Shown here piece by piece: positions 1 to 64,000 of a DNA stretch of 64,000 nt. The notes below the pieces were generated by a model that was not told the origin of the DNA, did no database searches, and was given only the letters and a program-made list of their open reading frames with translations. How positions within the stretch are numbered: the first letter of the stretch is position 1; each line of letters begins with the position of its first letter. Origin of the DNA: Amphiscolops sp. MND2022 (Eukaryota); assembly GCA_964187785.1 (NCBI GenBank), contig OZ076409.1:73100001-73164000 (forward strand), read 5' to 3'. The translations under genes and the position numbers were made by a program.

Positions 1-1171
1 AAACTAGCCACACGATTTGGCTGAAATTTGGCACACGTACCCCCCTCGGCACGGTGAAGATGATTTCCTACTGACGTTTTTCCCGCAAAATTTTTTTTGT
101 TGTCCAAAATAACGGTTTTTGGGGTAAAATTTTGAATTTTTTTTAAATTTTATCTTATATCTCGCCACCGGTTTACGCTAGCGCTTCAAAACCCTGCTAA
201 AGAAAGCTCGCAAACTGTCTCAGGAATGCGGTGTGAAATTTTCAGCTCAATCGGACTCAAACTCAGGGAGATATAGCGTTTTTCCGGAGCGGGGGGGTTT
301 CATTTTTCTAACGGTCCAGCTTATCTTAGCCATTTTTTCGAAAATGTACTCGCCTAAAGACCTCCCCTGGCCGGTTTTATTCCCAGCAAAACCATTTGGC
401 CCTAAATACGGAGTTTCAGCGTTCCAGCATTCCCGGGCGAAAAGTTGTGGGACTTAGAAAATTTCAAAAATTTTCAAAATTTTTTTTTTCCGTTTTCCGC
501 CCTCCCCCCCTAGGGGAAAAGACCCCCCAACCAGTAATTTGAGTGATTTCATGTGGAAAGGCCATGTTTAGAGGAGAAAATGCCGTTTAGAACGTCTTTT
601 TATCTTGGCTCAACGTTGACTTATGACGTTTTGAAGGTGATGTTTGGAGGTGTAAAGCACGTGAATAGTAAACGTTATGAGTATTCATCTGATCTGAAAG
701 CCATTGAGATGCAACCTGTTTTGCTCAAAACGTAATTCATATCCGTTTGGTAGTCAATCAACACCCTTTGTTGTCATTTGACATCTTTTTTTGTTGATAT
801 AAGAAAAAATTTCGTGTACTTATTCATTTTTTTCTCATCAAATAACTTGAAACAGTTGAGTACATTCCATCCCCCCTTCACGGGGGAGATGAGAATGTAC
901 TCGCAAAAAGCCCCAAACTACGGCCCTTACCTTCCTGAGCTACGCAGTATAAAGATTGCATATTGGTTCCGACATTTTGATAGAGTTATATCTTGGTAAT
1001 CTGTCTGGGTATGCAGAAAAACCAGCACGTGCTTTTTTATACCAAGTTGCTCACAACGACATTTATTTTATATCAACGCCCCCATATTTATCAACGCCCC
1101 CCGTCCGTGGGCATGCCGAGGCATGCCCTTCGACGACGTATACCAAAATATGTTCGAGCGCGTTAGCCTAG
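1..1171. repeat. S-family unit, 5'-truncated by window edge
   Basis: Colinear with 3259-4430. Has the S internal palindrome (858-902) and the junction palindrome (1109-1128), and ends in CTAG at 1168-1171. Confidence 0.9.
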
Positions 1172-1228
1172 GTGCGGGGGGGTAACCCCAACAAATATAT
1201 TGGAGGATTCGGGTAGGGTCCTGAATCC
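1073..1228. other. Conserved unit-junction module (representative of 32 copies)
   Basis: TCAACGCC at 1073 and 1091, GGGCATGCC-GA-GGCATGCCC at 1109-1128, core CTAGGTG at 1168-1174, and hairpin GGATTCGGG-TAGGGT-CCTGAATCC at 1205-1228. The G of CTAG falls at 1171, 3142, 4430, 6402, 8376, 10349, 12320, 14306, 16279, 18269, 20243, 21488, 22775, 24048, 25334, 26606, 27893, 29886, 31857, 33145, 34419, 35691, 36955, 38246, 39524, 40813, 56550, 57842, 59111, 60393, 61670 and 62963. Confidence 0.92.
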
Positions 1229-3142
1229 GATTTTAACTCTAATAGCTATCGATAGGAAATCTTGCAAAAATTTCGGGATCTCGTGATCTAACCATAGGAT
1301 TTTAAAGTTGGAGCGGCCCCCACCAGATTTTCCGAAAATTAGCGCCCCCCACCGGGTTCCAGCGTGATTGAAATATTTTGTCGGGGTACACGGGCGACCG
1401 TTAGGGGTCATTTTAGGGGTAAAATTTATAAAAGTTAGCATAACTTTTTTCCTGTTGGTTTAAAACTTTAGGACCCTGCTAAAAGTTTCTTGACCATGTT
1501 GCAGGGGCCCCGGAGGTCCAAACCAAATTTTTCTATCTTGAAGCTATCTCCAAGTACCCCCCCGCTCAAACCGTTATTTTTCCGGAAACGCAGGTTTTTG
1601 ACCCGGAAGGAGTCGTCTGAGCGCGGGGTCGTTAGGTGATGTATTGGGGACGGCCTTGAGACGAAGTGGGGGACAAGTAGTTTGCCAACCTCAATTTACC
1701 CCCCGGACGGGAAATGACCGTTATATGAGCGTGAAAAATGCCCCCCTCCACGTTTTACCGCTATTTCCGGTGTGAAGGAGTGGGAGTAGCGCGTCGGGTG
1801 TTATATAACAAAAGTAGGTTTAGACAAGGACCTATCGGAAACATGTAGTTTGGGACCCCCTGGACCAACCCGTTAGCGGGCAATGGGGCTTCCGCCTCCT
1901 TTTTTTAGTGCTAAAACCGTAAAATGGGCATTGAGGGGTAAATATCTCGTGAACGCGTGGAGCAATCGTGTCCATCACTACTACAAGGTTTCATACCCAT
2001 GATATGGTGCCTTCAGGGGGGCAAACAGATTTCCGCTATCTATCACCGTTACCGACTTGGCCCCCCAGCCTAACCGCTATGTGACCGGAAATGTCACTTT
2101 TTGAGCCCAAAGGGTCGGTCCCAGCCGCGGAACGTTAGGTAACTTATTGTAGTACTCAATGAGACGAGTTGGGGGATATAGTTTCAGTCACCCCCCGTTA
2201 CCCCTTGGGACCGGAAATGACCGTTATGTGGGTAAAATTGCAATTTTTATACTTGTTCAAGTGTATTTAGGTGCGGAAGGAGTGGTAATAGGTGCTTGGA
2301 CACTATATGAGGTAAGGGAGGACGTGAGGCGAGCATTCGGAAAAAACCGTTATGTTGACCCTAAAGTCCCCCTGGTACCGTAAACGACCGGAAATGGTCA
2401 AATTTTGTGTCTATTGGGTACAAATGTTTTGTATTTTGTAGATAAAAGTATCTATTAGGTGTTTCGACGGTCTACAGTAGTGAACATAGTCATGAAACCT
2501 TGTGGGGTGTAACGGTATATAGCACCGGAAGTCAAACCGTTGGAGACAGGATAGGTTTTTTGGTTTTAAAATGTCTTTCGGCGTAATTTTTTCGACTCTT
2601 GTGGACTATTTTTAAAAATTAAAGTTTTTCCATATAGTTTCAGAGACTCCGAAACCTCAACCAACATAACCGTTACCTTATGATAGCCTTTCAAGTTGGC
2701 CTGGTGTCAACTTGGAAGCGCTATCCTTCTGAAATCGTTAATCAAGAGTGTTTTTGGGTAGGTATATATTGCATTAGTACCAATTAGAGCTTCATCAACA
2801 GTGTATCAACGACAAAAACTATGCCGTCATGATTCCGTTATTAGAATCATAGTGAGCAAATTGTTGAAAAAAATGGTTTTTTCCATACAAAATGTGTCCT
2901 AAATGCCAGGAAACCTATTTACCTAACAAATGGTATTAATTGGAATGTTTGTAACAGATTTATAAAAGTTCAAATTGAATATTACATTTCATTATGGAAG
3001 CTGAAACGTCATATTTTAGTTTAATTAACGTCAACGCCACACACTTTACATCAACGCACACCGTCTGTGGGCATGCCGAGGCATGCCCTTCGACGACGTA
3101 AGACAAATCCTTATCAAACGACGCCCGTACATCCCGGGCTAG
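1172..3142. mobile_element. L-family unit (1971 bp), putative non-autonomous mobile element
   Basis: Starts GTGCGGGGGG and ends palindrome-spacer-CTAG. Near-identical to 10350-12320. No long ORF. The repeat is directly visible; mobility is inferred. Confidence 0.65.
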
Positions 3143-4430
3143 GTGCCGGGATTTCTATTCGATAAAGTATGTGGCGCGCCTTGGGTAGGGTCCCTTGCGC
3201 GCTCTTGGGTATGGTGTTCACCAGCTAGGAAACAGGGGTCGATTTTTCGGGATCTCCTAAACTAGCCACACGATTTGGCTGAAATTTGGCACACGTACTC
3301 CCCTCGGCACGGTGAAGATGATTTCCTACTGACGTTTTTCCCGCAAAATTTTTTTTGTTGTCCAAAATAACGGTTTTTGGGGTAAAATTTTGAATTTTTT
3401 TTAAATTTTATCTTATATCTCGGCACGGGTTTACGCTAGCGCTTCAAAACCCTGCTAAAGAAAGCTTGCAAACTGTCTCAGGAATGCGGTGTGAAATTTT
3501 CAGCTCAATCGGACTCAAACTCAGGGAGATATAGCGTTTTTCCGGAGCGGGGGGGTTTCATTTTTCTAACGGTCCAGCTTATCTTAGCCATTTATTCGAA
3601 AATGTACTCGCCTAAAGACCTCCCCTGGCCGGTTTTATTCCCAGCAAAACCATTTGGCCCTAAATACGGAGTTTCAGCGTTCCAGCATTCCCGGGCGAAA
3701 AGTTGTGGGACTTAGAAAATTTCAAAAATTTTCAAAAATTTTTTTTTCGGTTTTCCACCCTCCCCCCCGAGGGGAAAAGACCCCCCAACCAGTAATTTGA
3801 GTGAATTCATGTGGAAAGGCCATGTTTAGAGGAGAAAAATCCCGTTTAAATTGTCTTTTTATCTTTATTCAACGTTGACTTATGACGTTTTGAAATTGAT
3901 GTTTGGAGGTGTGAAGCACGTGAAAAGTAAACGTTATGAGTATTTATCTGATCTGAAAGCCATTGAGATGCAACCTGTTTTGCTCAAAACGTAATTCATA
4001 TCAGTTTGGTAGTCAATCAACACCCTTTGTTGTCGTTTGACATACTTTTTTGTTGTTATAATAAAAAAATTTGTGTATTTATTCATTTTTTTCTCATCAA
4101 ATAACTTTAAACAGTTGAGTACATTCCATCCCCCCTTCACGGGGGAGATGAGAATGTACTCGCAAAAAGCCCCAAACTACGTCCCTTACCTTCCCGAGCT
4201 ACGCAGTATAAGAATTACATATTGGTTCCGACATTTTCATAGAGTTAAATCTTGGTAATCTGTCTGGATATGCAGAAAAACCAGCACGTGCTTTTTTATA
4301 CCAAGTTGCTCACAACGACATTTATTTTATATCAACGCCCCCATCTTTATCAACGCCCCCCATCCGTGGGCATGCCGAGGCATGCCCTTCGACGACGTAT
4401 ACCAAGATATGTTCGAGCGCGTTAGCCTAG
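3143..4430. mobile_element. S-family unit (1288 bp) between two L units, putative non-autonomous mobile element
   Basis: Starts GTGCCGGGATTTC and ends GTTAGCCTAG. Matching flanks are directly joined at 12320/12321. Close copies lie at 26607-27893 and 31858-33145. Confidence 0.7.
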
Positions 4431-7400
4431 GTGCGGGGGGGAAACCCCATCCCTTATCTTGGAGGATTCGGGTAGGGTCCTGAATCCGAGTTCAGTGCCG
4501 CCAGCTCTCAGTAGAAATCTGGGAAATTTTTTGCGATCTCGTGATCTAACCATAGGATTTTAAAGTTGGAGCGGCCCCCACCAGATTTTCCAAAGTTATT
4601 CGCCCCCCACCGGGTTCCAGCGTGATTGAAATATTTTGTCGGGGTACACGGGCGACCGTTAGGGGTCATTTTAGGGGTAAAATTTATATCCGGTCGCATA
4701 ACTTTTTTCCTGTTGGTTTAAAACTTTGGGACCCTGCTAAAAGTTTCTTGACCGTGTTGCGGTGGCTCCGGAGGTCCAAACCAATTTTTTCTATCTTGAA
4801 GCTATCTCCAAGTACCCCCCCGCCCAAACCGTTATTTTTCCGGAAACGCCGGTTTTTGACCCGGAAGGAGTCGTCTGAGCGCGGGGTCGTTAGGTGATGT
4901 TTTGGGGACGGCCTCGAGACGAAGCGGGGGATATATAGTTTGCCGACCCCAGTTTACCCCCCGCACGGGAAATGACCGTTATATGAGCGGGAAAAATGCC
5001 CCCCTCCACGTTTTACCGCTATTTCCGGTGTGAAGGAGTGGGAGTAGCGCGTCGGGTGTTATATAACAAAAGTAGGTTTAGACAAGGACCTATCGGAAAC
5101 ATGTAGTTTGGGACCCCCTGGACCAACCCGTTAGCGGGAAATGGGGCTTCCGCCTCCTTTTTTTACTGCTAAAACCGTAAAATGGGCATTGAGGGGTAAA
5201 TATCTCGTGAACGCGTGGAGCAATCGTGTCCATCACTACTACAAGGTTTCATACCCATGATATGGTGCCTTCAGGGGGGCAAACAGATTTCCGCTATCTA
5301 TCACCGTTACCGACTTGGCCCCCCAGCCTAACCGCTATGTGACCGGAAATGTCACTTTTTGAGCCCAAAGGGTCGGTCCCAGCCGGGGAACGTTAGGTAA
5401 CTTATTGTAGTACTCAATGAGACGAGTTGGGGGACATAGTTTCAGTCACCCCCCGTTACCCCTTGGGACCGGAAATGACCGTTAAGTGGGTAAAATTGCA
5501 TATTTTATACTTTTTCAAGTGTATTTAGGTGCGGAAGGAGTGGTAATAGGTGCTTGGACACTATATGAGGTAAGGGAGGACGTGAGGCGAGCATTCGGAA
5601 ATAACCGTTATGTTGACCCTAAAGTCCCCCTGGTACCGTAAACGACCGGAAATGGTCAAATTTTGTGTCTATTGGGTACAAATGTTTAGTATTTTGTAGA
5701 TAAAAGTATCTATTAGGTGTTTCGACGGTCTGCAATAGTGAACATAGTCATGAAACCTTGTGGGGGATAACGGGGTATATAGCGCCGGAAGTCCAAACCG
5801 TTGGACACAGGATAGGTTTTTGGTTTGAAAATGTCTTTCGGCGTACTTTTGTCGACTATTATGGACAATTATTAAAAATTAAAGTTTTTCCATATAGTTT
5901 CAGAGACTCCGAAACCTCAACCAACATAACCGTTGCATTTTGATAGCCTTTCAAGTTGGCCTGGTGTCAACTTGGAAGCGCTATCCTTCTGAAATCGTTA
6001 ATCAAGAGTGTTTTTGGGTAGGTATATATTGCATTAGTACCAATTAGAGCTTCATCAACAGTGTATCAACGACAAAAACTATGCCGTCATGATTCCGTTA
6101 TTAGAATCATAGTGAGCAAATTGTTGAAAAAAATGGTTTTTTCCATACAAAATGTGTCCTAAATGCCAGGAAACCTATTTACCTAACAAATGATATTAAT
6201 TGGAATGTATGTAACAAATTTATAAAAGTTCAAATTGAATATTACATTTCATTATGGAAGCTGAAACGTTATATTTTAGTTTAATTAACGTCAACGCCAC
6301 ACACTTTACATCAACGCCCATCGTCTGTGGGCATGCCGAGGCATGCCCTTCGACGACGTATGACAAATCCATATCAAACGACGCCCGTACATCCCGGGCT
6401 AGGTGCGGGGGGGAAACCCCAACAAAAATTTTGGAGGATTCGGGTAGGGTCCTGAATCCGAGTTCAGTGCTGCCAGCTTTCGTTAAGAAAATTTGGATAG
6501 GATTCGGGATCTCGTGATCTAACCATAGGATTTTAAAGTTGGAGCGGCCCCCACCAGATTTTCCGAAAATTAGCGCCCCCCACCGGGTTCCATACCCCGG
6601 AAAATTTTTTTCTGGCCACACGGGCGACCGTTAGGGGGTCATTTTAAGGGTAAAATTCATATTGGGCCACATAACTTTTTTTCTGTTGATTTAAAACTTT
6701 GGGACCCTGCTAAAAGTTTCTTGACCTTGTTGCAGTGGCTCCGGAGGTCGAAACCAAATTTTTCTATCTTGAAGCTATCTCCAAGTACCCCCCCGCCCAA
6801 ACCGTTATTTTTCCGGAAACGCAGGTTTTTGACCCGGAAGGAGTCGTCTGAGCGCGGGGTCGTTAGGTGATGTATTGGGGACGGCCTTGAGACGAAGTGG
6901 GGGACATGTAGTTTGCCGACCCCAGTTTACCCCCCGGACGGGAAATGACCGTTATATGAGCGGGAAAAATGCCCCCTTCCACGTTTTACCGCTATTTCCG
7001 GTGTGAAGGAGTGGGAGTAGCGCGTCGGGTGTTATATAACAAAAGTAGATTTAGACAAGGACCTATCGGAAACATGTAGTTTGGGACCCCCTGGACCAAC
7101 CCGTTAGCGGAAAATGGGGCTTCCGCCTCCTTTTTTTACTGCTAAAACCGTAAAATGGGCATTGAGGGGTAAATATCTCGTGAACGCGTGGAGCAATCGT
7201 GTCCATCACTACTACAAGGTTTCATACCCATGATATGGTGCCTTCAGGGGGGCAAACAGATTTCCGCTATCTATCACCGTTACCGACTTGGCCCCCCAGC
7301 CTAACCGCTATGTGACCGGAAATGTCACTTTTTAAGCCCAAAGGGTCGGTCCCAGCCGGGGAATGTTAGGTAACTTATTGTAGTGCTAATTGAGACGAGC

Positions 7401-10400
7401 TGGGGGATATAGTTTCAGTCACCCCCCGTTACCCCTTAGGACCGGAAATGACCGTTATGTGGGTAAATTTGCTTTTTTTGTACTTTTTGGAGGGCATTTA
7501 GATGCGGAAGGAGCGGTAATAGGTGCTTGGACACTATATGAAGGAAGGGAGGACGTGAGGCGAGCATTCGGAAATAACCGTTATGTTGACCCTAAAGTCC
7601 CCCTGGTACCGGAAGTGACCCGTAATGGTCAAATTTTGTGTTTAAAGGGTACAAATGTTTGGTGTTTTATGGATAACAGTACCTATTAGGTGTTTCGACG
7701 GTCTGCAGTCGTGAACATAGTCATGAAACCTTGTGGGGGGTAACGGTATATAGCACCGAAAGTCCAAACCGTTGGAGACAGGATACGTTTTTTGGTTTTA
7801 AAATGTCTTTCGGCCTACTTTTGTCGACTATTATGGACTATTTTTGAAAAATAAAGTTTTTCCATATAGTTTCAGCGACTCCGAAACCTCAACCAACATA
7901 ACCGTTACCTTATGATAGCCTTTCAAGTTGGCCTGGTGTCAACTTGGAAGGGCTATCCTTCAAAAGTCATTAATCAAGTTTGTTTTTGAGTATGTTTGTT
8001 TTACTTTAGAATCAATTAGAGCTTCAAGAAAATATTGCCAACGATAAAAACTATGTCGTGATGATTCCGTTATTAGAATAATAGTTACCAAAATGTTGAT
8101 AAAGTTGATTTTTTACATTTCAAATCTGTCCTAAATGCCAGAAAACCTCTTTACCAAACTAATGGTATTGATTGAATTGTATATAGCAGCTAATAAAAGT
8201 TAAATTGAATATTACGTTTCATTATGGAAGCTGAAACGTCAAATTATAGTTTAATTAACGTCAACGCCACATACTTTACATCAACGCCCACCGTCCGTAG
8301 GCATGCCGAGGCATGCCTTTCGACGACGTATACCAAAATCCACCCACACAACACCAACGAGCGCGGTAGCAGCTAGGTGCGGGGGGGTAACCCCTACAAA
8401 GATATTGGAGGATTCGGGTAGGGTCCTGAATCCGAGTTCAGTGCTGCCAGCTATCGTTAGGGATTTGAGAAAATTTTGCCGATCTCGTGATCTAACCGTA
8501 GGATTTTAAAGTTGGAGCGGCCCCCACCAGATTTTCCAAAGTTATTCGCCCCCCACCGGGTTCCAGCGTGATTGAAATATTTTGACGGGGTGCACGGGCG
8601 ACCGTTAGGGGTCATTTTGGGGGTAAAATTTATATCCGGTCGCATAACTTTTTTCCTGTTGGTTTAAAACTTTGGGACCCTGCTGAAAGTTTCTTGACCG
8701 TGTTGCAGTGGCTCCGGAGGTCCCAACCAAATTTTTCTATCTTGAAGCTATCTCCAAGTACCCCCCCGCCCAAACCGTTATTTTTCCGGAAACGCAGGTT
8801 TTTGACCCGGAAGGAGTCATCTGAGCGCGGGGTCGTTAGGTGATGTATTGGGGACGGCCTTGAGACGAAGCGGGGGATATATAGTTTGCCGACCCCAGTT
8901 TACCCCCCGGACGGGAAATGACCGTTATATGAGCGGGAAAAATGCCCCCCTCCACGTTTTACCGCTATTTCCGGTGTGAAGGAGTGGGAGTAGCGCGTCG
9001 GGTGTTATATAACAAAAGTAGGCTTAGACAAGGACCTATCGGAAACATGTAGTTTGAGACCCCCTGGACCAACCCGTTAGCGGGAAATGGGGCTTCCGCC
9101 TCCTTTTTTTACTGCTAAAACCGTAAAATGGGCATTGAGGGGTAAATATCTCGTGAACGCGTGGAGCAATCGTGTCCATCACTACTACAAGGTTTCATAC
9201 CCATGATATGGTGCCTTCAGGGGGGCAAACAGATTTCCGCTATCTATCACCGTTACCGACTTGGCCCCCCATCCTAACCGCTATGTGACCGGAAATGTCA
9301 CTTTTTGAGCCCAAAGGGTCGGTCCCAGCCGGGGAACGTTAGGTAACTTATTGTAGTGCTAATTGAGACGAGCTGGGGGATTTAGTTTCAGTCACCCCCC
9401 GTTACCCCTTAGGACCGGAAATGACCGTTATGTGGGTAAATTGGCATTTTTTGTACTTTTTGAAGGGCATTTAGATGCGGAAGGAGTGGTAATAGGTGCT
9501 TGGACACTATATGAAGGAAGGGAGGACGTGAGGCGAGCATTCGGAAATAACCGTTATGTTGACCCTAAAGTCCCCCTGGTACCGGAAGTGACCCGTAATG
9601 GTCAAATTTTGTGTTTAAAGGGTACAAATGTTTGGTGTTTTATGGATAACAGTACCTATTAGGTGTTTCGACGGTCTGCAGTCGTGAACATAGTCATGAA
9701 ACCTTGTGGGGGGTAACGGTATATAGCACCGAAAGTCCAAACCGTTGGAGACAGGATACGTTTTTTGGTTTTAAAATGTCTTTCGGCCTACTTTTGTCGA
9801 CTATTATGGACTATTTTTGAAAAATAAAGTTTTTCCATATAGTTTCAGAGACTCCGAAACCTCAACCAACATAACCGTTACCTTATGATAGCCTTTCAAG
9901 TTGGCCTGGTGTCAACTTGGAAGGGCTATCCTTCAAAAGTCATTAATCAAGTTTGTTTTTGAGTATGTTTGTTTTACTTTAGAATCAATTAGAGCTTCAA
10001 GAAAATATTGCCAACGATAAAAACTATGTCGTGATGATTCCGTTATTAGAATAATAGTTAAAAAATTTTGATAAAGTTGATTTTTTACATTTCAAATCTG
10101 TCCTAAATGCCAGAAAACCTCTTTACCAAACAAATGGTATTGATTGAATTGTATAAAACAGCTAATAAAAGTTCAAATTGACTATTACGTTTCATTATGG
10201 AAGCTGAAACGTCATATTATAGATTCATTACTGTCAACGCCACATACTTTACATCAACGCCCACCGTCCGTAGGCATGCCGAGGCATGCCTTTCGACGAC
10301 GTATACCAAATTCCACCCACACAACACCCTCGAGCGCGGTAGCAGCTAGGTGCGGGGGGGTAACCCCAACAAATATATTGGAGGATTCGGGTAGGGTCCT

Positions 10401-13400
10401 GAATCCGATTTTAACTCTAATAGCTATCGATAGGAAATCTTGCAAAAATTTCGGGATCTCGTGATCTAACCATAGGATTTTAAAGTTGGAGCGGCCCCCA
10501 CCAGATTTTCCGAAAATTAGCGCCCCCCACCGGGTTCCAGCGTGATTGAAATATTTTGACGGGGTACACGGGCGACCGTTAGGGGTCATTTTGGGGGTAA
10601 AATTTATATCCGGTCGCATAACTTTTTTTCTGTTGATTTAAAACTTTGGAACCCTGCTAAAAGTTTCTTGACCGTGTTGCAGGGGCCCCGAAGGTCCAAA
10701 CCAAATTTTTCTATCTTGAAGCTATCTCCAAGTACCCCCCCGCTCAAACCGTTATTTTTCCGGAAACGCAGGTTTTTGACCCGGAAGGAGTCGTCTGAGC
10801 GCGGGGTCGTTAGGTGATGTATTGGGGACGGCCTTGAGACGAAGTGGGGGACAAGTAGTTTGCCAACCTCAATTTACCCCCCGGACGGGAAATGACCGTT
10901 ATATGAGCGTGAAAAATGCCCCCCTCCACGTTTTACCGCTATTTCCGGTGTGAAGGAGTGGGAGTAGCGCGTCGGGTGTTATATAACAAAAGTAGGTTTA
11001 GACAAGGACCTATCGGAAACATGTAGTTTGGGACCCCCTGGACCAACCCGTTAGCGGGAAATGGGGCTTCCGCCTCCTTTTTTTAGTGCTAAAACCGTAA
11101 AATGGGCATTGAGGGGTAAATATCTCGTGAACGCGTGGAGCAATCGTGTCCATCACTACTACAAGGTTTCATACCCATGATATGGTGCCTTCAGGGGGGC
11201 AAACAGATTTCCGCTATCTATCACCGTTACCGACTTGGCCCCCCAGCCTAACCGCTATGTGACCGGAAATGTCACTTTTTGAGCCCAAAGGGTCGGTCCT
11301 AGCCGGGGAACGTTAGGTAACTTATTGTAGTACTCAATGAGACGAGTTGGGGGATATAGTTTCAGTCACCCCCCGTTACCCCTTGGGACCGGAAATGACC
11401 GTTATGTGGGTAAAATTGCAATTTTTATACTTTTTCAAGTGTATTTAGGTGCGGAAGGAGTGGTAATAGGTGCTTGGACACTATATGAGGTAAGGGAGGA
11501 CGTGAGGCGAGCATTCGGAAATAACCGTTATGTTGACCCTAAAGTCCCCCTGGTACCGTAAACGACCGGAAATGGTCAAATTTTGTGTCTATTGGGTACA
11601 AATGTTTTGTATTTTGTAGATAAAAGTATCTATTAGGTGTTTCGACGGTCTACAGTAGTGAACATAGTCATGAAACCTTGTGGGGGGTAACGGTATATAG
11701 CACCGGAAGTCAAACCGTTGGAGACAGGATAGGTTGTTTGGTTTTAAAATGTCTTTCGGCGTACTTTTTTCGACTCTTGTGGACTATTTTTAAAAATTAA
11801 AGTTTTTCCATATAGTTTCAGAGACTCCGAAACCTCAACCAACATAACCGTTACCTTATGATAGCCTTTCAAGTTGGCCTGGTGTCAACTTGGAAGCGCT
11901 ATCCTTCTGAAATCGTTAATCAAGAGTGTTTTTGGGTAGGTTTATATTGCATTAGTACCAATTAGAGCTTCATCAACAGTGTATCAACGACAAAAACTAT
12001 GCCGTCATGATTCCGTTATTAGAATCATAGTGAGCAAATTGTTGAAAAAAATGGTTTTTTCCATACAAAATGTGTCCCAAATGCCAGGAAACCTATTTAC
12101 CTAACAAATGGTATTAATTGGAATGTTTGTAACAGATTTATAAAAGTTCAAATTGAATATTACATTTCATTATGGAAGCTGAAACGTCATATTTTAGTTT
12201 AATTAACGTCAACGCCACACACTTTACATCAACGCACACCGTCTGTGGGCATGCCGAGGCATGCCCTTCGACGACGTATGACAAATCCTTATCAAACGAC
12301 GCCCGTACATCCCGGGCTAGGTGCGGGGGGGAAACCCCATCCCTTATCTTGGAGGATTCGGGTAGGGTCCTGAATCCGAGTTCAGTGCCGCCAGCTCTCA
12401 GTAGAAATCTGGGAAATTTTTTGCGATCTCGTGATCTAACCATAGGATTTTAAAGTTGGAGCGGCCCCCACCAGATTTTCCAAAGTTATTCGCCCCCCAC
12501 CGGGTTCCAGCGTGATTGAAATATTTTGTCGGGGTACACGGGCGACCGTTAGGGGTCATTTTGGGGGTAAAATTTATATCCGGTCGCATAACTTTTTTCC
12601 TGTTGGTTTAAAACTTTGGGACCCTGCTAAAAGTTTCTTGACCTTGTTGCAGTGGCTCCGGAGGTCCAAACCAAATTTTTCTATCTTGAAGCTATCTCCA
12701 AGTACCCCCCCGCCCAAACCGTTATTTTTCCGGAAACGCAGGTTTTTGACCCGGAAGGAGTCGTCTGAGCGCGGGGTCGTTAGGTGATGTATTGGGGACG
12801 GCCTTGAGACGAAGCGGGGGACATGTAGTTTGCCGACCCCAGTTTACCCCCCGGACGGGAAATGACCGTTATATGAGCGGGAAAAATGCCCCCTCCACGT
12901 TTTACCGCTATTTCCGGTGTGAAGGAGTGGGAGTAGCGCGTCGAGTGTTATATAACAAAAGTAGGTTTAGACAAGGACCTATCGGAAACATGTAGTTTGG
13001 GACCCCCTGGACCAACCCGTTAGCGGGAAATGGGGCTTCCGCCTCCTTTTTTTACTGCTAAAACCGTAAAATGGGCATTGAGGGGTAAATATCTCGTGAA
13101 CGCGTGGAGCTACGGTGTCCATCACTACTACAAGGTTTCATACCCATGATATGGTGCCTTCAGGGGGGCAAACAGATTTCCGCTATCTATCACCGTTACC
13201 GACTTGGCCCCCCAGCCTAACCGCTATGTGACCGGAAATGTCACTTTTTGAGCCCAAAGGGTCGGTCCCAGCCGGGGAACGTTAGGTAACTTATTGTAGT
13301 ACTCAAGGAGACGAGTTGGGGGATATAGTTTCAGTCAACCCCCGTTACCCCTTGGGACCGGAAATGACCGTTATGTGGGTAAATTTGCATTTTTTATACT

Positions 13401-40800: not shown

Positions 40801-40813
40801 CGGTAGCCGCTAG
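31858..40813. repeat. Seven tandem S-family units of several subfamilies
   Basis: Units 31858-33145, 33146-34419, 34420-35691 (divergent), 35692-36955 (divergent), 36956-38246, 38247-39524 and 39525-40813. Confidence 0.93.
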
Positions 40814-41298: not shown

Positions 41299-41302
41299 TA
41301 AT

Positions 41303-41330
41303 CCTGCTCCAGGGTTAATTTTGGTCACTT
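41303..41330 (+). repeat. Left terminal inverted repeat
   Basis: CCTGCTCCAGGGTTAATTTTGGTCACTT; its reverse complement matches 55728-55755 at 27/28 positions. Confidence 0.9.
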
Positions 41331-51900: not shown

Positions 51901-54900
51901 CATTGCATAGCCAAAATTAACCCTTTGGTCAACCCTTATACTATTATTGGCTGGCGGAAGTTCATTATTGGAGCCCAAGAACCAACTAATGCACACTGAC
52001 GCAACCTATGGGACCTGTGATATGTGAAATTATGCTTTAGAATGATATCAAGTGGTTTTAGGATGTCTGAGGGTACATAAGAATGTTTTTACGAAAATTG
52101 CTATGACCGAAGTGAACTTCTCGCTCCGTCCAAAAATCGCCATACCGTGAGTTGGTCCTAATTGCACTCATTTTCGTCAATTACTATAGCCACAGCTTAC
52201 GTGGTGTGAATTTGAGGCCCCTACTACCACTAGAAAAAATTCCGGACCCCCAGAAGTGTTCCTTAAAACAGCGCTATAGGACGTCTTTTTTCAGGCAGTA
52301 TTTTGCCGATTTACTGGAAACTTTTGGTATTAAAAAATTGTTCTAAAGCACATGGTGCACTTTTTCAATGCCTATAGCGTTGATTCAAGTTGTAATTAGG
52401 GCCCCTTGGGTCCTGTGGCGATCACAGGAATCGCTGCCATAATTGATGGAAAAACATCTGATTTTTCCTTCAAAACCGTTCTTGGCTGGCGGAAATTCAT
52501 TATTGGAACCCAACATCCAACTAATGCACACTAACGCAACCTATGGGACCTGTGATATGTGAAATTATGCTTTAGACTGATATCAAGTGGATTTAGGATG
52601 CCTAAGGGTACCTAAGAATGTTTTTACGAAAATTGTCATGTCTGAAGTGAAATTCTCGCACCGTCCGAAGAACGCCATACTGTGAGTTGGTCCAAATTGC
52701 ACCCATTTTCGTCAATTACTATGGGTACAGCTTAGGTGGTGTGAATTTGGCGCCTCTACGACCACCAGAAAAAATTTTGGATCCCCAGAAGGGTTCCTTA
52801 AAACAGTGCTATGAGACGACTTTTTTCAGGCAGTATTTTGCCGATTTACTGGAAACTTTTGGTAGTAAAAAACTGTTCTAAAGCACATGGTGCACTTTTT
52901 CAATGCCTATAGCGTTGATTCAAAATGTATTTGGGGCCCTTTGGGTCCTGTGGGGATCACAGGAACCGCTGCCATAATTGGCATTGCATAGCCAAAATTA
53001 ACCCTTTGGTCAACCCTTATACTATTATTGGCTGGCGGAAGTTCATTATTGGAGCCCAAGAACCAACTAATGCACACTGACGCAACCTATGGGACCTGTG
53101 ATATGTGAAATTATGCTTTAGAATGATATCAAGTGGTTTTAGGATGTCTGAGGGTACATAAGAATGTTTTTACGAAAATTGCTATAACCGAAGTGAACTT
53201 CTCGCTCCGTCCAAAAATCGCCATACTGTGAGTTGGTCCAAATTGCACCCATTTTCGTCAATTACTATAGGTACAACTTACGTGGTGTGAATTTGGTGCC
53301 TCTACGACCACTAGAAAAAATTTCGGACCCCCAGAAGTGTTCCTTAAAACAGTGCTATGAGACGACTTTTTTCAGGCAGTATTTTGCCGATTTACTGGAA
53401 ACTTTTGGTAATAAAAAACTGTTCTAAAGCACATGGTGCACTTTTTCAATGCCTATAGCGTTGATTCAAGCTGTAAGTAGGGCCCCTTGGGGCCTGTGGC
53501 GATCACAGGAATCGCTGCCATAATTGATGCAAAATTGTCTGATTTTTCCTTCAAAACATTTCTTGGCTGGCGGAAATTCATTATTGGAGCCCAAGACCCA
53601 ACTAATGCACACTAACGCAACCTATGGGACCTGTGATATGTGAAATTGTGCTTTAGAATGATATCAAGTGGTTTTAGGATGCCTAAGGGTACCTAAGAAT
53701 GTTTTTACAAAAATTGTCATGTCTGAAGTGAAATTCTCGCACCGTCCAAAAATCGCCATACTGTGAGTTGGTCCAAATTGCACCCACTTTCGTCAATTAC
53801 TATAGGTACAGCTTACGTGGTGTGAATTTGGTGCCTCTACGACCACTAGAAAAAATTTCGGACCCCCAGAAGGGTTCCTTAAAACAGTGCTATGAGACGA
53901 CTTTTTTCAGGCAGTATTTTGCCGATTTACTGGAAACTTTTGGTATTAAAAAATTGTTCTAAAGCACATGGTGCACTTTTTTAATGCCTATAACATTGAT
54001 TCAAGCTGTAAGTAGGGTCCACCAAGTCCTGTATTGATCACAGGAACCGCTGCCATAATTGGTGTTTGCATAGCCAAAATTAACCTTTTGCTCAACCCTT
54101 ATATCGGTCTTGGCTAGCGGAATATCTTTTTGGTCCCCAAGAACCAACTAATGCACACTGACGCAACCTATGGGACCTGTGATATGTGAAATTATGCTTT
54201 AGAATGATATCAAGTGGTTTTAGGGTGTCTGAGGGTACATAAGAATGTTTTTACGAAAATTGCTATTACCGAAGTGAACTTCTCGCACCGTCCGAAAATC
54301 GCCATACTGTGAGTTGGTCCAAATTGCACCCAATTTCGTCAATTACTATAGCCACAGCTTACGTGGTGTGAATTTGAGGCCTCTACGACCACTAGAACAA
54401 ATTTCGGACCCCCAGAAGTGTTCCTTAAAACAGCGCTATAGGACGTCTTTTTTCAGGCAGTAATTTGCCAATTTACTGGAAACTTTTGGGTGTAAAAAAT
54501 AGTTTAAAAGCACATGGTGCACTTTTTCAATGCATATAGCGTTGATTCAAGCTGTAAGTAGGGCCCCTTGGGTCCTGTGGCAATCACAGGAATCGCTGCC
54601 ATAATTGATAGAAAAATATCTGATTTTTTCTTCAAAACGCTTCTTGGCTGGCGGAAATTCATTATTGGAGCGCAAGACCCAACTAATGCATACTAGCGCA
54701 ACCTATGGGACCTGTGATATGTGAAATTATGCATTAGAGTGATATCAAGTGGTCTTAGGATGTCTGAGGGTACATAAGAATGTTTTTACGAAAATTCCTT
54801 TGTCCGAAGTGAACTTCTCGCACAGTCGAAAAATCGCTATACTAAGATTTGGTCCGAATTGCACCCATTGTTGTCAACTAATATGCCTTCAGGTTACGTG
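42992..54900. repeat. Satellite array: 22 full monomers of 535 or 546 bp plus a degenerate partial
   Basis: Equivalent positions recur at 42992, 43526, 44072, 44607, 45142, 45677, 46223, 46758, 47293, 47839, 48374, 48920, 49455, 49990, 50525, 51071, 51606, 52152, 52687, 53233, 53768, 54314 and 54849. The first interval is 534 bp. Confidence 0.97.
46223..52686. repeat. Two copies of a 3232-bp six-monomer higher-order repeat
   Basis: 46223-49454 and 49455-52686 share the length pattern 535,535,546,535,546,535 and the same monomer-specific variants (e.g. translations at 46758=49990, 47839=51071, 48920=52152). Confidence 0.92.
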
Positions 54901-55727
54901 GAGCGAATTTGAGAATTTTAGGCCACCTGTGTGAGATTTCAAAGTGTCAAAAGCATTCTACAAAACGAAGGAAAAGAATAACTTTCGTTGCACATGACTT
55001 CTCGACCAACTGCAACAGAAATTAATCCTCTCAGACTCACAAAACTTGTTCAATTCATAACTAGAGAGTTCTAGTTACAAGTATACCATGTTCACCCTTT
55101 CAATTCCCTCATTAAAAAGTTTGTGAATATTAGAAAGTATTATGAAAAGGAAGGGTCTCGTCACCGTTGAGGTTTCTTGTCGCTCAACGCATCCTATTGC
55201 TCTCAAACGCTAAAAATATGCCCAAAATTGAACGCGAAAATCCCACAATTACTTCGGATACACCATTCAGTTGTCTAAACCTTCGGAAAAAGTGTTTTCA
55301 GGTTATAGGGTTGGGAAAGGGTTAATTTTAGCACCATGAATTTCAATACAGTTTTTATCCACTTAAAAAAGGAAATTGGTAGAACGAACTATGTTTTCGA
55401 TTTCTACGCACAAAATGGAGTTCGTAGACGCGTTTCTGGCATTGTAAGGACATTCTAAAGTTTTAAGGGTTACCCGGTGGATGGTTAATATCGGCACCCT
55501 TAAAATCACGGATTTCGTCAAGGGTGTAGTTATTTTCGGAATCAGCGTGAAAAATGGAGCCCGGTGCTCTTTTTTCATCTCCCTAACTTGTTTCTACGCA
55601 AAATTCGTGCCGGGTTAACTTTGGACACCCAAATGGTTAATTTTGGCCTACGCCAAAATTAACCATTTTGGCAATGGTTAATTTTGGCTCCTGGTCTTTC
55701 CCGCGCTCCGGGTTAATTTTGGTCAAA

Positions 55728-55755
55728 AAGTGACCAAAATTAACCCTGGTGCAGG
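55728..55755 (-). repeat. Right terminal inverted repeat
   Basis: AAGTGACCAAAATTAACCCTGGTGCAGG. It also forms the right arm of a local 16-bp hairpin (55710-55746). Confidence 0.9.
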
Positions 55756-55756
55756 G

Positions 55757-56550
55757 CTCCCCTGGCCAGTTTTATTCCCGGCAAAACCATTTGGCCCTAA
55801 ATACGGAGTTTCAGCGTTCCAGCATTCCCGGGCGAAAAGTTGTGGGACTTAGAAAATTTCAAAAATTTTCAAAAAAATTTTTTTCCGTTATTTGGGCCCC
55901 CAAAGTGGGGGAAAAGACCCCCCAACCAGTAAAGCAAGTGAATGCATGTGGAAAGCCCTTGTTTAGACGAGAAAAATGCCGTTTAGAACGTTTTTTTATC
56001 GTAACTTGACATTGACTTTTGTCGTTTTGAAGGTGACCGTTAGATACAGAAAATTGATATTTTGAGTGTTTATCCCATCTGAAAGCCATTGAGATACAAA
56101 ATTTTTTGTTCAAAACGTGTTTCATTGCAGTTTCGCTGTCCATTAACACCATTTGGTGTCTTTTGATGTAATTTTCTTTTCTATAATAACAATTTCTTTG
56201 TGTATTTATTCATTTTTTTCTCATCAAATAACTTGAAACAGTTGAGTACATTCCATCTCCCTTCCCGGGGGAGATGAGAATGTACTCGCTAAAGGTCAGG
56301 AACTACGGTCTATATCTTCCAAAACACAAAAGAGATTGCAAATGGTTTCAGTTTGTCGCAGAAAACTTCTTTTTGCACTCTGTGACTCGACAAAGTGAAC
56401 GTTTCTTACTTACTTTGAATCTCACCATACCACAACTCATCTCTAACGTCAACGCCCCCCACACACATCAACGCCCCCCGTCCGTGGGCATGCTGAGGCA
56501 TGCCCTTCGACGACGTATAACAAAATATATTCGAACGCGGTAGCGGCTAG
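55757..56550. repeat. Right part of the interrupted S unit
   Basis: Resumes the S consensus at CTCCCCTGGCC and runs to the junction CTAG at 56547-56550. Confidence 0.92.
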
Positions 56551-59500: not shown

Positions 59501-62500
59501 GAAATTAACGGTTTTTTGGGCGTTTCCGGGGTAAATTTTTTAACGGTCCAGCTTATCTTTGCCATTTTTTCGAAAATGTACATGCCTAAAGGCCTCCCCC
59601 TGGCCGAATTTACTCCCAGCAAACCCATTTGGCACTAAATACGGAGTTTCAGCGTTCCAGCATTCCGGGGCGGAAAGTTGTGGGACTTGGAAAAATTTCA
59701 AAATTTTTTCAAAAATTTTTTTTCCCGTTTTCCGGGCCCCCAATGAAGGGGAACGACCCCCCAACCAGTATTTTGAGTGAATTCATGTGGAACGCCCATG
59801 TTTGGAGGAGAAAAATGCCGTTTAGCACATCTTTTTATCTTAACTTGACATTGACTTATGACGTTTTGAATGTGATGTTAGGATATATGAAGCATGTTAA
59901 AAGTTGAAGTTTTGAGTCTTTATCTCATCGGAAAACCATTGAGATACAAGCAGTTTTGCTAAAAACGATTTTCATTGTAGGTTAGCAGAGTATTAGTACA
60001 CTTTGATGTCATTTGAGTATTTTTTTCTTCTATATAATAACTGTTTTTATGTATTTATTCCAATTTATCTCATCTTTTAACATCAAGCAGTTGAGTACAT
60101 TTCATCTCCCTTTCGGGGGAGATGAGAATGTACTCGCTAAAAACCTAATGCTATGGCGCCAATGTTTGGATGGGAAGTTTTCTATGCTTTGAGAAAAGTT
60201 ATTTTTAATTACTTGATTTTTTAAAACAATAATTAACATGAAGTACATTACTTGCTCCTACTACTACCACCATACATCTCTAACGTCAACGCCCCCTGCT
60301 TGCATCAACGCCCCATCGTCCGTGGGCATGCCGAGGCATGCCCTTCGACGACGTATGCCAAATGCCCAGTGCCACGCAGTCTTTCCCCGCTAGGTGCCGG
60401 TGTTTTTTTACACAAAGGGGGATGTTGCGCGTGTGGGGAGGGTCCCTGACGCGCTCCCGGGATTTCGGATTTTTTAACCTTTACGTACCCATCAAAAATT
60501 TTGGGATCTCGAAAACTAGCCGTACGATTTGGCTGAAATTTGGCACACGTACCCCCCTCGGCACGGTGAAGATGATTTCCTACTGACGTTTTGCTCGCTA
60601 AACATTTTTTGTTGACCAAAATAACGGTTTTTGGGGTAAAATTTTCAACTTTTTTTAAATTTCATCTTATATCTCGCCACAGGTGCACGCTAGCGCTTCC
60701 AAACCTTGCTGACGAAAGTTTGCAAACTGTCTCAGGAATGCTGTGTGAAAATTTCAGCTCAATCGGACTTGAACTCGAGGAGATATAGCGTTTTTCCGGA
60801 GCGGGGGGGTTTCATTTTTCTAACGGTCCAGCTTATCTTTGCCATTTTTTCGAAAATGCACTCGCCTAAAGGCCTCCCCTGGCCGGTTTTATTCCCAGCA
60901 AAACCATTTGGCCCTAAATACGGAGTTTCAGCGTTCCAGCGTTTCCGGGCGAAAAGTTGTGGGACTTAGAAAATTTCAAAAATTTTCAAAAAAAATTTTT
61001 CCGTTATTTAGGTCCCCAAAGTGGGGAAAAGGACCCCCCAACCAGTAAAGCAAGTGAATGCATGTGGAAAGCCCTTGTTTAGACGAGAAAAATGGCGTTT
61101 GGAACGTTTTTTTATCGTAACTTGACATTGACTTTTGTCGTTTTGAAGGTGACCGTTAGATACAGAAAATTGATATTTTGAGTGTTTATCCCATCTGAAA
61201 GCCATTGAGATACAAAATTTTTTGTTCAAAACGTGTTTCATTGCAGTTTCGCTGTCCATGAACACCCTTTGGTGTCTTTTGACGTAATTTTCTATTCTAT
61301 AATAACAATTTCTTTGTGTATTTATACATTTTTTTCTCATCAAATAACTTGAAACAGTTGAGTACATTCCATCTCCCTTCCCGGGGGAGATGAGAATGTA
61401 CTCGCTAAAGGCCGCGAACTACGGTCTATATCTTCCCCAACACAAAAAAGATTGAAAATTGTTTCATTTTGTGGAAAAAATTCTTCTTTTTGTACTCTTT
61501 GACTCGACAAAGTGAACGTTTCTTACCTATTTTGAAACTTCCCTCACCAAAAATCATCTCTAACGTCAGCGCCTCCCTACTTGCATCAACGCCCCCCGTC
61601 CGTGGGCATGCCGAGGCATGCCCTTCGACGACGTATGCCCAAGATATACCCCGAGCGCGGTAGCCGCTAGGTGCCGGTGTTTTTTTACACAATGGGGGAA
61701 GTTGCGCGGTTGGGGAGGGTCCCTGACGCGCTCCCGGGATTTCGGATTTTTTAACCTTTACGTACCCATCAAAAATTTTGGGATCTCGAAAACTAGCCGT
61801 ACGATTTGGCTGAAATTTGGCACACGTACCCCCCTCGGCACGGTGAAGATGATTCCCTACTGACGTTTTGCTCGCTAAACATTTTTTGTTGTCCAAAATA
61901 ACGGTTTTTGGGGTAAAATTTTGAACTTTTTTTAAATTTCATCTTATATCTCGCCACGGGTACACGCTAGCGCTTCCAAACCTTGCTGACGAAAGTTTGC
62001 AAACTGTCTCAGGAATGCGGTGTGAAATTTTCAGCTCAATCGGACTTAAACTCGGGGAGATATAGCGTTTTTCCGGAGCGGGGGGGTTTCATTTTTCTAA
62101 CGGTCCAGCTTATCTTTGCCATTTTTTCGAAAATGCACTCGCCTAAAGGCCTCCCCTGGCCGGTTTTATTCCCAGCAAAACCATTTGGCCCTAAATACGG
62201 AGTTTCAGCGTTCCAGCATTTCCGGGCGAAAAGTTGTGGGACTTAGAAAATTTCAAAAATTTTCAAAAAATTTTTTTTCCGTTATTTGGGCCCCCAAAGT
62301 GGGGGAAAGCACCCCCCAACCAGTAAAGCAAGTGAATGCATGTGGAAAGCCCTTGTTTAGAGGAGAAAAATGCCGTTTAGAACGTCTTTTTATCTTGGCT
62401 CAACGTTGACTTATGACGTTTTGAAGGTGATGTTTGGAGGTGTAAAGCACGTGAATAGTAAACGTTATGAGTATTTATCTGATCTGAAAGCCATTGAGAT

Positions 62501-64000
62501 GCAATATGGTTTGCTCAAAACGTAATTCATTGCAGTTTGGCAATCAATCAACACCCTTTGTTGTCGTTTGACATACTTTTTTGTTGTTATAATAAAAAAT
62601 TTTGTGTATTTATTCATTTTTTTCTCATCAAATAACTTGGAACAGTTGAGTACATTCCATCCCCCCCTTCCGGGGGAGATGAGAATGTACTCGCAAAAAG
62701 CACCGAACTACGGCCCTTACCTTCCCGAGCTACGCAGTATAAGGATTACATATTGGTTCCGACATTTTCATAGAGTTATATCTTGGTAATCTGTCTGGAT
62801 ATGCCGAAAAATCAGCACGTGCCTTTTAATACCAAGTTGCTCACAACGACAATTATTTTATATCAACGCCCCCATATTTATCAACGCCCCCCGTCCGTGG
62901 GCATGCCGAGGCATGCCCTTCGACGACCCGCACCAAAATATGCGTTAGCGCGGTAGCTGCTAGGTGCCGGGATTTCTATTCGATAAAGTATGTGGCGCGC
63001 CTTGGGTAGGGTCCCTTGCGCGCTCTTGGGTATGGTGTTCACCAGCTAGGAAACAGGGGTCGATTTTTCGGGATCTCCTAAACTAGCCACACGATTTGGC
63101 TGAAATTTGGCACACGTACTCCCCTCGGCACGGTGAAGATGATTTCCTACTGACGTTTTTCCCGCAAAATTTTTTTTGTTGTCCAAAATAACGGTTTTTG
63201 GGGTAAAATTTTGAATTTTTTTTAAATTTTATCTTATATCTCGCCACCGGTTTACGCTAGCGCTTCAAAACCCTGCTAAAGAAAGCTTGCAAACTGTCTC
63301 AGGAATGCGGTGTGAAATTTTCAGCTCAATCGGACTTAAACTCGGGGAGATATAGCGTTTTTCCGGAGCGGGGGGGGTTTCATTTTTCTAACGGTCCAGC
63401 TTATCTTAGCCATTTTTTCGAAAATGTACTCGCCTAAAGACCTCCCCTGGCCGGTTTCATTCCCAGCAAAACCATTTGGCCCTAAATACGGAGTTTCAGC
63501 GTTCCAGCATTCCCGGGCGAAAAGTTGTGGGACTTAGAAAAATTCAAAAATTTTCAAAAAAATTTTTTTCCGTTTTCCGCCCTCCCCCCCTAGGGGAAAA
63601 GACCCCCCAACCAGTAATTTGAGTGAATTCATGTGGAAAGGCCATGTTTAGACGAAAAAATTGCCGTTTAGAACGTCTTTCTATCTCAACCTGACATTGA
63701 CTTATGAAGCTTTAAAGGTGATGTTTGGACGTGTGAAGAATGTAAAAAAAGGAATTTTTTTGATTTTATTTAATCAGAAAGTCATTGAATCACACGCTGT
63801 GAAGCCCAGAGCGTGGTTTCTAATAGTTTGGTATCGTTTAAACGCATTTTGATGTCTTTTTACTCTGTTTAAAAAACTTTTCTCATGAAAATTAATAAAT
63901 TTTGATTACTTTTCTTACTTTCCATTAATTTTTTTTTCTTATATTTTTACTTGAAACAGTTGAGTACATTCCATCTCCCTTCCCGGGGGAGATGAGAATG
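56551..64000. repeat. Five complete S-family units and one 3'-truncated unit
   Basis: Units 56551-57842, 57843-59111 (divergent), 59112-60393 (highly divergent), 60394-61670, 61671-62963 and 62964-64000 (partial). Confidence 0.93.

Follow-up and report, generated by a model that had tools for sequence, protein, structure and literature searches.

Single-orientation arrays in Amphiscolops sp. are probably stacked by a distinct, self-targeting Helitron lineage

Organization and extent of the array

The stretch of DNA analyzed here (the window) is 64 kb long, corresponds to C1:73,100,001-73,164,000 (C1 being contig OZ076409.1) of the 1.07-Gb genome assembly of Amphiscolops sp. MND2022 and is occupied by a head-to-tail array of non-autonomous, Helitron-like DNA elements (Table 1). 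The word CTAGGTG is found 32 times on its plus strand and once on its minus strand, while base composition predicts 3.4 occurrences per strand. Cutting the window at CTAG^GTG yields 11 L and 22 S units, all in one orientation and with the two end units incomplete, and this recount agrees with the 32 junctions and 33 same-orientation units of the initial annotation. The L units range from 1,971 to 1,993 bp and are mutually 87-99% alike, while the S units are a set of subfamilies that are 67-99% alike and, when complete, range from 1,245 to 1,293 bp, except for one of 15,737 bp (40814-56550) that owes its length to a 14,461-bp insertion. Both classes share about 80 bp of tail and a hairpin box in the head. 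Thus, the earlier view that the units represent two unrelated families is correct in that the window contains two classes, but not in that they are wholly unrelated; nor are they the only families, because the array holds many more, autonomous elements among them. Two features described earlier were found again: one S head recurs behind four different tails (cores 3139, 26603, 31854 and 62960), and a tail whose end is GTTCGAGCGCGTTAGC is found in front of L heads (cores 1168, 4427 and 27890) as well as S heads (cores 33142 and 38243). No open reading frame longer than 170 aa is found anywhere in the window, an Rfam search of the window gave no match and a scan of the window for tandem repeats with periods up to 500 bp gave none except one 40-bp match.

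The window sits in an array of about 6 Mb (C1 about 70.5-76.5 Mb). The 50 kb on each side is organized likewise, so that the 164 kb around the window contains 96 junctions and its units, of 1.2-4.8 kb, fall into about 15 coarse families. The 40 best matches to one tail are distributed over C1 (38.1 Mb and 70.5-76.0 Mb), C2 (102.1-103.8 Mb), C8, C10 and a small contig. Genome-wide, a palindrome-type tail followed by CTNG-GTG has 4,869 matches (none in the reversed control), while tails followed by CTAG-WT number 61, at least three of which are in-array ATG heads, and tails followed by CTAG-HV number eight; the latter two patterns leave out CTAG-CT. Hence, 4,869 tail-to-head junctions compare with 69 tails that have other sequence at their 3' side.

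Table 1. Coordinates of features in the 64-kb window. Each core joins the 3' end of one unit to the 5' end of the following unit.
Feature	Position	Strand	Remarks
Helitron-like non-autonomous head-to-tail array section	1-64000	+	33 units; array extends beyond both window edges
First junction core CTAG^GTG	1168-1174	+	Boundary set by dispersed copies and linkage loss; putative nick site
Other core starts, part 1	3139, 4427, 6399, 8373, 10346, 12317, 14303, 16276, 18266, 20240, 21485	+	
Other core starts, part 2	22772, 24045, 25331, 26603, 27890, 29883, 31854, 33142, 34416, 35688	+	
Other core starts, part 3	36952, 38243, 39521, 40810, 56547, 57839, 59108, 60390, 61667, 62960	+	
Example L unit	1172-3142	+	1,971 bp
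All L units	1172-3142 (1), 4431-20243 (8), 27894-31857 (2)	+	
Example S unit	3143-4430	+	1,288 bp
S-occupied stretches	1-1171, 3143-4430, 20244-27893, 31858-64000	+	
Head hairpin	1201-1230 (box 1211-1221)	+	Box GGG(T/G)AGGG(T/C)CC, about 40 bp inside the 5' end
Tail palindrome	1109-1128	+	GGGCATGCCGAGGCATGCCC then TTCGACGAC, 35-55 bp upstream of terminal CTAG
Insertion	41296-55756	.	14,461 bp; CCC...GGG ends, imperfect terminal inverted repeat, subterminal repeats, 2-bp CT duplication
Satellite	42992-54913	+	22 copies of a 535/546-bp unit, inside the insertion

Uncoupling of neighboring units at the junction core

Adjusted mutual information is 0.58 between the body of a unit and its own tail (191 contexts) and 0.81 between a head and its own body (166 contexts), but 0.14 between a tail and the next head. 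Tails that are at least 90% alike form 786 pairs, 785 of which agree in their upstream family. Linkage was measured at those junction contexts that have main-subfamily S units on either side (38 out of 120): for sites separated by 1-40 bp, r2 is 0.41 within the tail side and 0.19 within the head side, but 0.023 when the core lies between the sites. Linkage across the core (0.029) is close to the permutation null (0.027; p=0.31), and the minimum of a sliding cut falls at the core. Because homologous exchange leaves the closest markers most linked, the loss of linkage at the core is the reverse of what is expected of a satellite. Breakpoints between neighbors are thus concentrated at the core, as had been suggested, since neighbor linkage drops to the shuffled level exactly there; the opposing pattern, in which breakpoints would run through the shared palindrome, was looked for and not seen, the tail being kept with its upstream family. 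Near-identical pairs are followed by the same next unit in 1 of 35 cases, no higher-order repeat was found and shared neighbors number 6 vs. 3.5 expected.

End features of the units

The head box is present in all 32 heads of the window and in 111 of the 113 units examined overall, and it is closed by a family-specific complementary stem. Over 28 head types, arms paired with their own partner fold with a mean of -8.4 kcal/mol vs. -5.6 kcal/mol for swapped arms, although four of the 28 heads folded better with at least 10 foreign arms than with their own. Owing to bulges and misalignment in the outer stem, RNAalifold recovered just the four inner pairs of this hairpin, and the arm-swap test was used in its place. 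The tail palindrome is present in all 32 tails of the window and in 105 of the 113 units overall; some tail types are without it, including that of one unit coding for the transposase described below. The head hairpin is a putative origin or binding site and the tail palindrome a putative terminator. That the head box is more nearly universal than the tail palindrome fits the head as the origin end. All 32 window tails terminate in CTAG, and CTGG or CTTG is found at some tails elsewhere. At 191 junction contexts, the core is CTAGGTG in 184, CTAGATG in four, CTGGGTG in two and CTTGGTG in one, so the 7-bp core that had been called invariant is constant at the 32 junctions of the window but variable outside it. 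No terminal inverted repeat (TIR) was found: the longest head-tail inverted match averages 5.6 nt in 105 distinct end pairs vs. 5.8 nt after shuffling.

Three minor observations concern these ends. All window tails contain two copies of a short direct repeat, TCAACGCC, immediately before the tail palindrome (e.g., 1085-1100 and 4333-4358), reminiscent of a protein-binding iteron. A 2.19-kb family (C1:73,065-73,068 kb and 73,176-73,178 kb) starts with GTGG and is without the head hairpin box. At L167:1557-1590 the tail end is doubled, a CTAG being followed by another short tail before the normal junction is reached; imprecise insertion may be the cause.

Dispersed copies and target site

Solo copies outside the arrays, the search for which had been recommended in the initial annotation, were found. 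Thirty-five tail-found loci were examined (30 of the 61 CTAG-WT matches, four more and L038/L192): four lie within arrays or at an array end, nine are complete dispersed copies and the rest run beyond the sequence or have no recognizable head. All nine complete copies have the form host-CTNG ^ (G/A)TG ... CTAG ^ WT-host, and none of the nine has a target-site duplication. The tetranucleotide on the left is CTAG in four, CTCG in three and CTTG in two (the CTNG background being 1.1%) and is preceded by A in eight of the nine, while the 5' end is GTG in eight and ATG in one. The WT at the 3' side of these nine copies was selected by the search pattern; pattern-free searches agree with it, with T at +2 in 9 of 10, as does the ratio of 61 to eight given above. 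In one family with five copies the 3' end is always CTAG and the left tetranucleotide is of three kinds, which shows that the left one belongs to the host. The motif shared by the junctions is not a 7-bp repeat but a CTNG tetranucleotide that is contributed once, by the host. At L199, the left flank is half of a host palindrome that is completed by the right flank, with 27 unbroken pairs spanning the insertion point and a single CTAG. A head search with AT-rich left flanks gave 170 matches, 100 of which were listed (control, 29), and among the matches listed CTNG precedes 12 of the 17 heads outside the main arrays that were read by eye. CTNG^NT is thus common to the circle or array junction, the host target and the element end. 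The solo copy found first has CTAGAT at each of its ends, which raised a model with a 2-bp duplication; eight further copies led to the rejection of this model, as they had GTG heads whatever their 3' flank.

Two other kinds of dispersed copies were seen. At L054, L058 and L062, a 5'-truncated unit of about 1.7 kb is embedded in a larger element that is present in many copies and has a transposase-like frame. The unit is, therefore, carried by another transposon, which is presumably CACTA-like, to judge from a motif. In a frequent dispersed family (e.g., C1:5,399,327 and C4:33,988,254), a fixed upstream sequence ending in CTGG is followed by a GTGA head with the hairpin box; this family may be a composite element mobilized as a single unit.

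Autonomous units and their transposase

One dispersed tail lies downstream of a broken gene encoding a fused Rep and helicase protein (RepHel), and this lead provided the Rep part that was used as the genome query, which gave 263 candidates, 150 of them scored. Among the matches listed, 36 are within C1:70.5-76.5 Mb, all on the plus strand like the array, and 28 of the 36 have frames of at least 2,200 aa (both hand counts). Nine RepHel regions were delimited: five are complete units, 12.0-16.5 kb long, with an array junction at either end, two have only their 3' junction in the sequence examined, one is a broken dispersed copy and one (on C5) is without ends. The five complete units are long RepHel-coding units with the same ends, of the kind for which a search had been recommended; the head box is found in all five and the palindrome tail in four. 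The autonomous units lie in the arrays and in array orientation. The S units share blocks of 70-95% identity with the ends of four of these five long units, while no autonomous parent of L was found among the five.

Helitron_like_N and PIF1 domains were found in all five transposases scanned, of which L126 is just below both cut-offs, and a C-terminal GIY-YIG domain is above cut-off in three. In the other two the frame ends at a splice-donor-like site with a GIY-YIG-like exon beyond it, an arrangement that is also found in three metagenome contigs, and one RepHel subfamily is accordingly predicted to contain a spliceosomal-type intron. In five elements of one subfamily (L125:7104, L126, L205:3890, L206:7892 and L207:6259), the frame breaks off shortly behind the last helicase motif, in each case at a corresponding GT splice-donor-like site, and a GIY-YIG-like exon follows. 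The motifs T.T, EFQ..H.H and Y...Y (HUH and two tyrosines) are invariant in eight of eight transposases. Judged from their sequences, the array transposases are apparently intact (an example is the RepHel at C1:73,566,994-73,574,028), and those that share arrays are just 29-48% identical in the Rep region.

The predicted structure of the Rep region, with a mean predicted local distance difference test score of 58, has Helraiser (7LCC) as its best match (Z 14.3, root-mean-square deviation 5.6, 259 residues aligned; Foldseek E 2.4e-6), while 7LCC was not among the matches at E≤1 when the PDB was searched with the transposase sequence. The model of a second conserved frame is an OB-fold like those of RPA, MCM10 or CST (best Z 9.2, root-mean-square deviation 3.1, 116 aligned; Foldseek E 9e-5 with archaeal RPA). 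As for the GIY-YIG domain, our guess is that it could nick the second strand or resolve branched intermediates. With an HUH Rep fused to PIF1, ends common to autonomous and non-autonomous units and no target-site duplication, the lineage has the characters of the Helitron superfamily, and the stacked units are Helitrons. The question of family, which had been left open, is thus resolved by the RepHel enzyme and the lack of duplication.

Tyrosine-recombinase domains, considered earlier as an alternative partner of these ends, are present in the genome as 24 DUF3504 and four phage-integrase matches. None is within the arrays at C1 70.5-76.5 Mb or C2 102-103.9 Mb, and none of the unit end motifs was found in the 1.5 kb around the 10 DUF3504 loci inspected. 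A 1,055-codon frame at C3:2,082,695-2,085,292 (L045-L047) consists of three tandem repeats of about 993 bp, each matching both the DUF3504 and the phage-integrase model.

Two further observations concern the autonomous units. At C2:57.82-57.84 Mb (L121 and L122), a 15.4-kb autonomous unit holds near its 3' end an S-like unit minus its first 110 bp or so, which creates 660-bp direct repeats of 75% identity; this is possibly a read-through capture or the type of parent that yields S units by deletion. In the array regions at C2 about 102.6-102.8 Mb and C3 about 2.6 Mb, the RepHel genes switch strand (minus below, plus above), so each region has two stacks pointing away from each other; the C2 stack reaches within about 30 kb of the contig end.

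Mechanism and alternative explanations

The initial annotation had proposed an enzyme-driven, site-specific stacking of non-autonomous elements, and the breakpoints at the core, the dispersed copies and the long RepHel-coding units support it. We consider it quite probable that the array was built by a Helitron transposase that prefers as its target the tail-head junction of its own elements. Based on Helraiser and IS91, we propose that RepHel would bind the head hairpin, nick CTNG^GTG and become linked to the 5' G, that the helicase would peel the strand off and that a second nick at the tail, CTAG^, would close a circle with the junction CTAG^GTG, which would then be joined into a target nicked at CTNG^NT. 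As an existing junction offers a matching sequence and an adjoining hairpin, it would be preferred far above naked host sites. Each insertion would convert one junction into two, so that targets would be regenerated and units stacked singly, while the polarity of HUH enzymes would keep the orientation, leading to self-growing mixed stacks on which homologous exchange inside families and occasional local copying would be superimposed.

Several observations weigh against this proposal, at least in its purest form. The order of L and S units in the window, described earlier as irregular, is so, but it is not random (7 runs vs. 15.7 expected, p=0.0006), contrary to one-at-a-time random addition. 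Two adjacent 2.38-kb units are about 100% identical, and local copying or short concatemers account for some of the growth. The units are mosaic in structure, with breakpoints scattered over the whole unit (1.4 each in 58 S units and 1.9 each in 11 L units), and ordinary homologous exchange also acts within families. Part of the excess of junctions over solo copies could be due to units having been amplified once inserted and to dispersed copies having been selected against. Of the 17 heads inspected by eye beyond the main arrays, five are preceded by GTTC, GTCC, CCAG, CTCA or TTA, and the tail palindrome is absent from eight and the head box from two of the 113 units.

The strongest alternative, which we regard as unlikely though worth keeping in view, invokes the same enzyme with no target preference: rolling-circle concatemers or read-through circles would seed the arrays, and RepHel strand exchange between junctions, i.e., origin-to-origin release and rejoining between two existing junctions, would shuffle them in place. 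It accounts equally well for the break at the core and fits the local clustering and the identical tandem pair, and tandem Helitron junctions and circles have been reported (PMC5876387, PMC5148889). Against it, transposases with only 29-48% identity in their Rep regions and at least 30 head types cohabit in arrays on several contigs, so that separate elements must have entered at junctions, and nearest relatives are adjacent in just four of 95 units.

An ordinary Helitron-derived satellite, in which unequal crossing-over and gene conversion in shared sequence would have multiplied a few founding junctions, is very unlikely. Within-family mosaic breakpoints spread along the units and the tail sequence common to the families are as such a satellite would have them, but the weakest linkage is that between a tail end and the next head, at a distance of 7 bp, which largely refutes it; exchange in the palindrome would also separate tail from body, contrary to 785 of the 786 tail pairs, and there is no block duplication, while intact 7-kb frames persist in the array. 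Still less credible is an assembly artefact joining repeat copies at a shared word: contigs from one public sequencing run, which has a small share and was listed with no RNA run beside it, cover pieces only, and none of those listed spans a junction, but a 7-8-bp word is too short to join long reads, for which near-identical bodies of 1-2 kb are the likelier mis-join points, dispersed copies in unique flanks obey the same junction logic and the units carry private variants. Integration of cassettes at the CTAG core by a Crypton- or integron-like tyrosine recombinase can almost be dismissed, because, although dispersed copies appear flanked by a short direct repeat and such domains exist in the genome, none of the matches lies in the C1 or C2 array, the 10 DUF3504 loci inspected have no end motif within 1.5 kb and the long units encode RepHel.

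Relationship to known systems

In a tree of Rep regions with 72 rows (32 from this clade, 22 HLE2-type and 18 HLE1-type; 27 chosen rows were left out where motif extraction failed), the branch separating this clade has a Shimodaira-Hasegawa-like approximate likelihood ratio test support of 100, as does the clade branch in a helicase tree of 64 rows (24, 21 and 19, respectively; 15 left out), while the HLE2-type group is supported at 88 and 93, respectively; both trees are quick, unrooted and long-branched, have no outgroup and use as references subsamples seeded by the HLE1- and HLE2-type proteins of the genome itself. The transposases thus appear, from their sequences, as a clade apart from the sampled HLE1 and HLE2 rows, although the HLE2 rows may not represent every HLE2 subgroup. 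With our own profile, GIY-YIG was found in 98 of the 112 C-terminally complete clade proteins, but in none of 94 HLE2-type and none of 120 HLE1-type proteins. DUF6570 was found in none of five array transposases and none of nine relatives, vs. all five HLE2-type proteins of the same genome. With the Pfam Helitron model the lineage scores 37-47 bits vs. about 200 for HLE1. A profile search for relatives of the clade returned 384 clusters at E≤1e-30, the best 150 of which were listed, and species-named relatives among 20 proteins looked up are from Myxine glutinosa (hagfish), Styela clava (tunicate) and Perkinsus olseni. One metagenome contig begins with the same head box and a stem of its own, 4 kb before a Rep region, and the transposase encoded there has 46% identity with its closest counterpart among those tested here. 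A search of IMG/VR gave no relative.

HLE1 (canonical Helitrons) and HLE2 (Helitron2, Helentron and proto-Helentron) are used as defined previously (PMC11417382, PMC3627910). In Helraiser, an HLE1 element, the 5' end is required, the 3' hairpin is a terminator and circles have precise junctions (PMC4778049, PMC5876387). The array elements resemble it in the RepHel fold, a 3' CTAG behind a palindrome, the lack of duplication and head-to-tail junctions like those of Helraiser circles, but start with GTG rather than TC, have CTNG^WT rather than A^T as the target and differ in the palindrome lying 35-55 bp from the end, the conserved 5' hairpin and the fused GIY-YIG. With HLE2 they share hairpins at both ends and an RPA-like OB-fold gene, which some HLE2 carry; they differ in having no terminal inverted repeat or T^T target and no DUF6570 or apurinic/apyrimidinic endonuclease in the five array transposases scanned. 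Helitron2 of Chlamydomonas inserts downstream of a TTTT tetranucleotide without duplication (PMC3627910), and one HLE2 family of Sphagnum has a GIY-YIG domain (PMC11417382). Unclassified elements and four extra clusters of HELIANO could include the present clade (PMC11417382).

IS91 inserts at CTTG, GTTC or CTCG next to its origin end and has CTCG as its own cleavage site, and the IS91 family shares with the array elements HUH rolling-circle transposition, a host tetranucleotide target related to the cleavage site, the lack of duplication and subterminal palindromes (PMC13181058). Target choice here works like that of IS91, but the IS91 family is bacterial with a helicase-free Y2 enzyme, while the present elements are eukaryotic, with a fused helicase and GIY-YIG, a predicted intron and megabase mixed arrays. 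The Helitrons of Paramecium, compared by description only, form a clade outside HLE1 and HLE2, with sequence-specific targeting, strict orientation, clustering and intact frames, but their target is the telomeric repeat and not their own junction, and GIY is not mentioned in the main text describing them (PMC13085455). Replitrons have a Y1 Rep without helicase and element-owned terminal direct repeats (PMC10288648), while the 5' tetranucleotide of the array elements varies with the site; identity with Replitrons is ruled out by the fused helicase and the two tyrosines.

Tandem or clustered Helitrons have been described in plants, bats, Drosophila, Fusarium, Meloidogyne and Hydractinia (PMC5876387, PMC5148889, PMC13404089, PMC11934779 and a centromere atlas preprint). 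As excerpted, these too are tandem DNA derived from Helitrons and attributed to rolling-circle amplification, but they are copies of a single element or Helitrons between satellites rather than stacks of several families at one site. The literature search found no account of a Helitron clade with GIY-YIG fused to RepHel, nor of mixed Helitron stacks formed by self-targeting; Repbase, Dfam and subscription journals were outside its scope. The integron cassette array with which the window had been loosely compared holds as an analogy for stacking, but not as kinship, as the enzyme is a RepHel and no tyrosine recombinase is involved. The HeT-A/TART/TAHRE arrays of Drosophila telomeres also combine several families in one orientation and irregular order by one-at-a-time addition, but those are non-LTR (long terminal repeat) retroelements at chromosome ends, while the units here are DNA elements at internal junctions.

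Implications

The evidence points to a probably distinct Helitron lineage whose stacking is probably self-targeted. A broader reading, about which we are evenly divided, is that this is a major Helitron lineage found across eukaryotes, with a fused GIY-YIG, an IS91-like CTNG nick and self-junction targeting, that builds its own multi-megabase, single-orientation niche of intact families; the niche so understood would comprise dozens of divergent autonomous families plus their non-autonomous parasites. That the stacks have further been taken up as chromosome structure is improbable.

Through self-targeting, a DNA transposon could give rise to megabase tandem DNA without unequal crossing-over, as the target would be regenerated with each insertion, and eukaryotic Helitrons would be linked to IS91-type target choice. 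The model so far, Helraiser, is a reconstructed element with an A^T preference only; natural and, as far as their sequences indicate, intact transposases with defined ends and target should make target recognition by Helitrons directly testable. A large transposase that would act without duplication at a site defined by sequence and hairpin may also be of interest as a tool. Standard annotators probably miss the lineage because of its weak Pfam Helitron score and its lack of TC or TIR ends.

Foreign insertion in an S unit

The insertion in S unit 40814-56550, which had gone unmentioned when all units were assigned to two families, is unrelated to the stacking of units. Judging from its features listed in Table 1, it is presumably CACTA/EnSpm-like. 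The subterminal motif GGTTAATTTTGG is repeated in it, and the 535- and 546-bp units of its satellite occur in irregular order.

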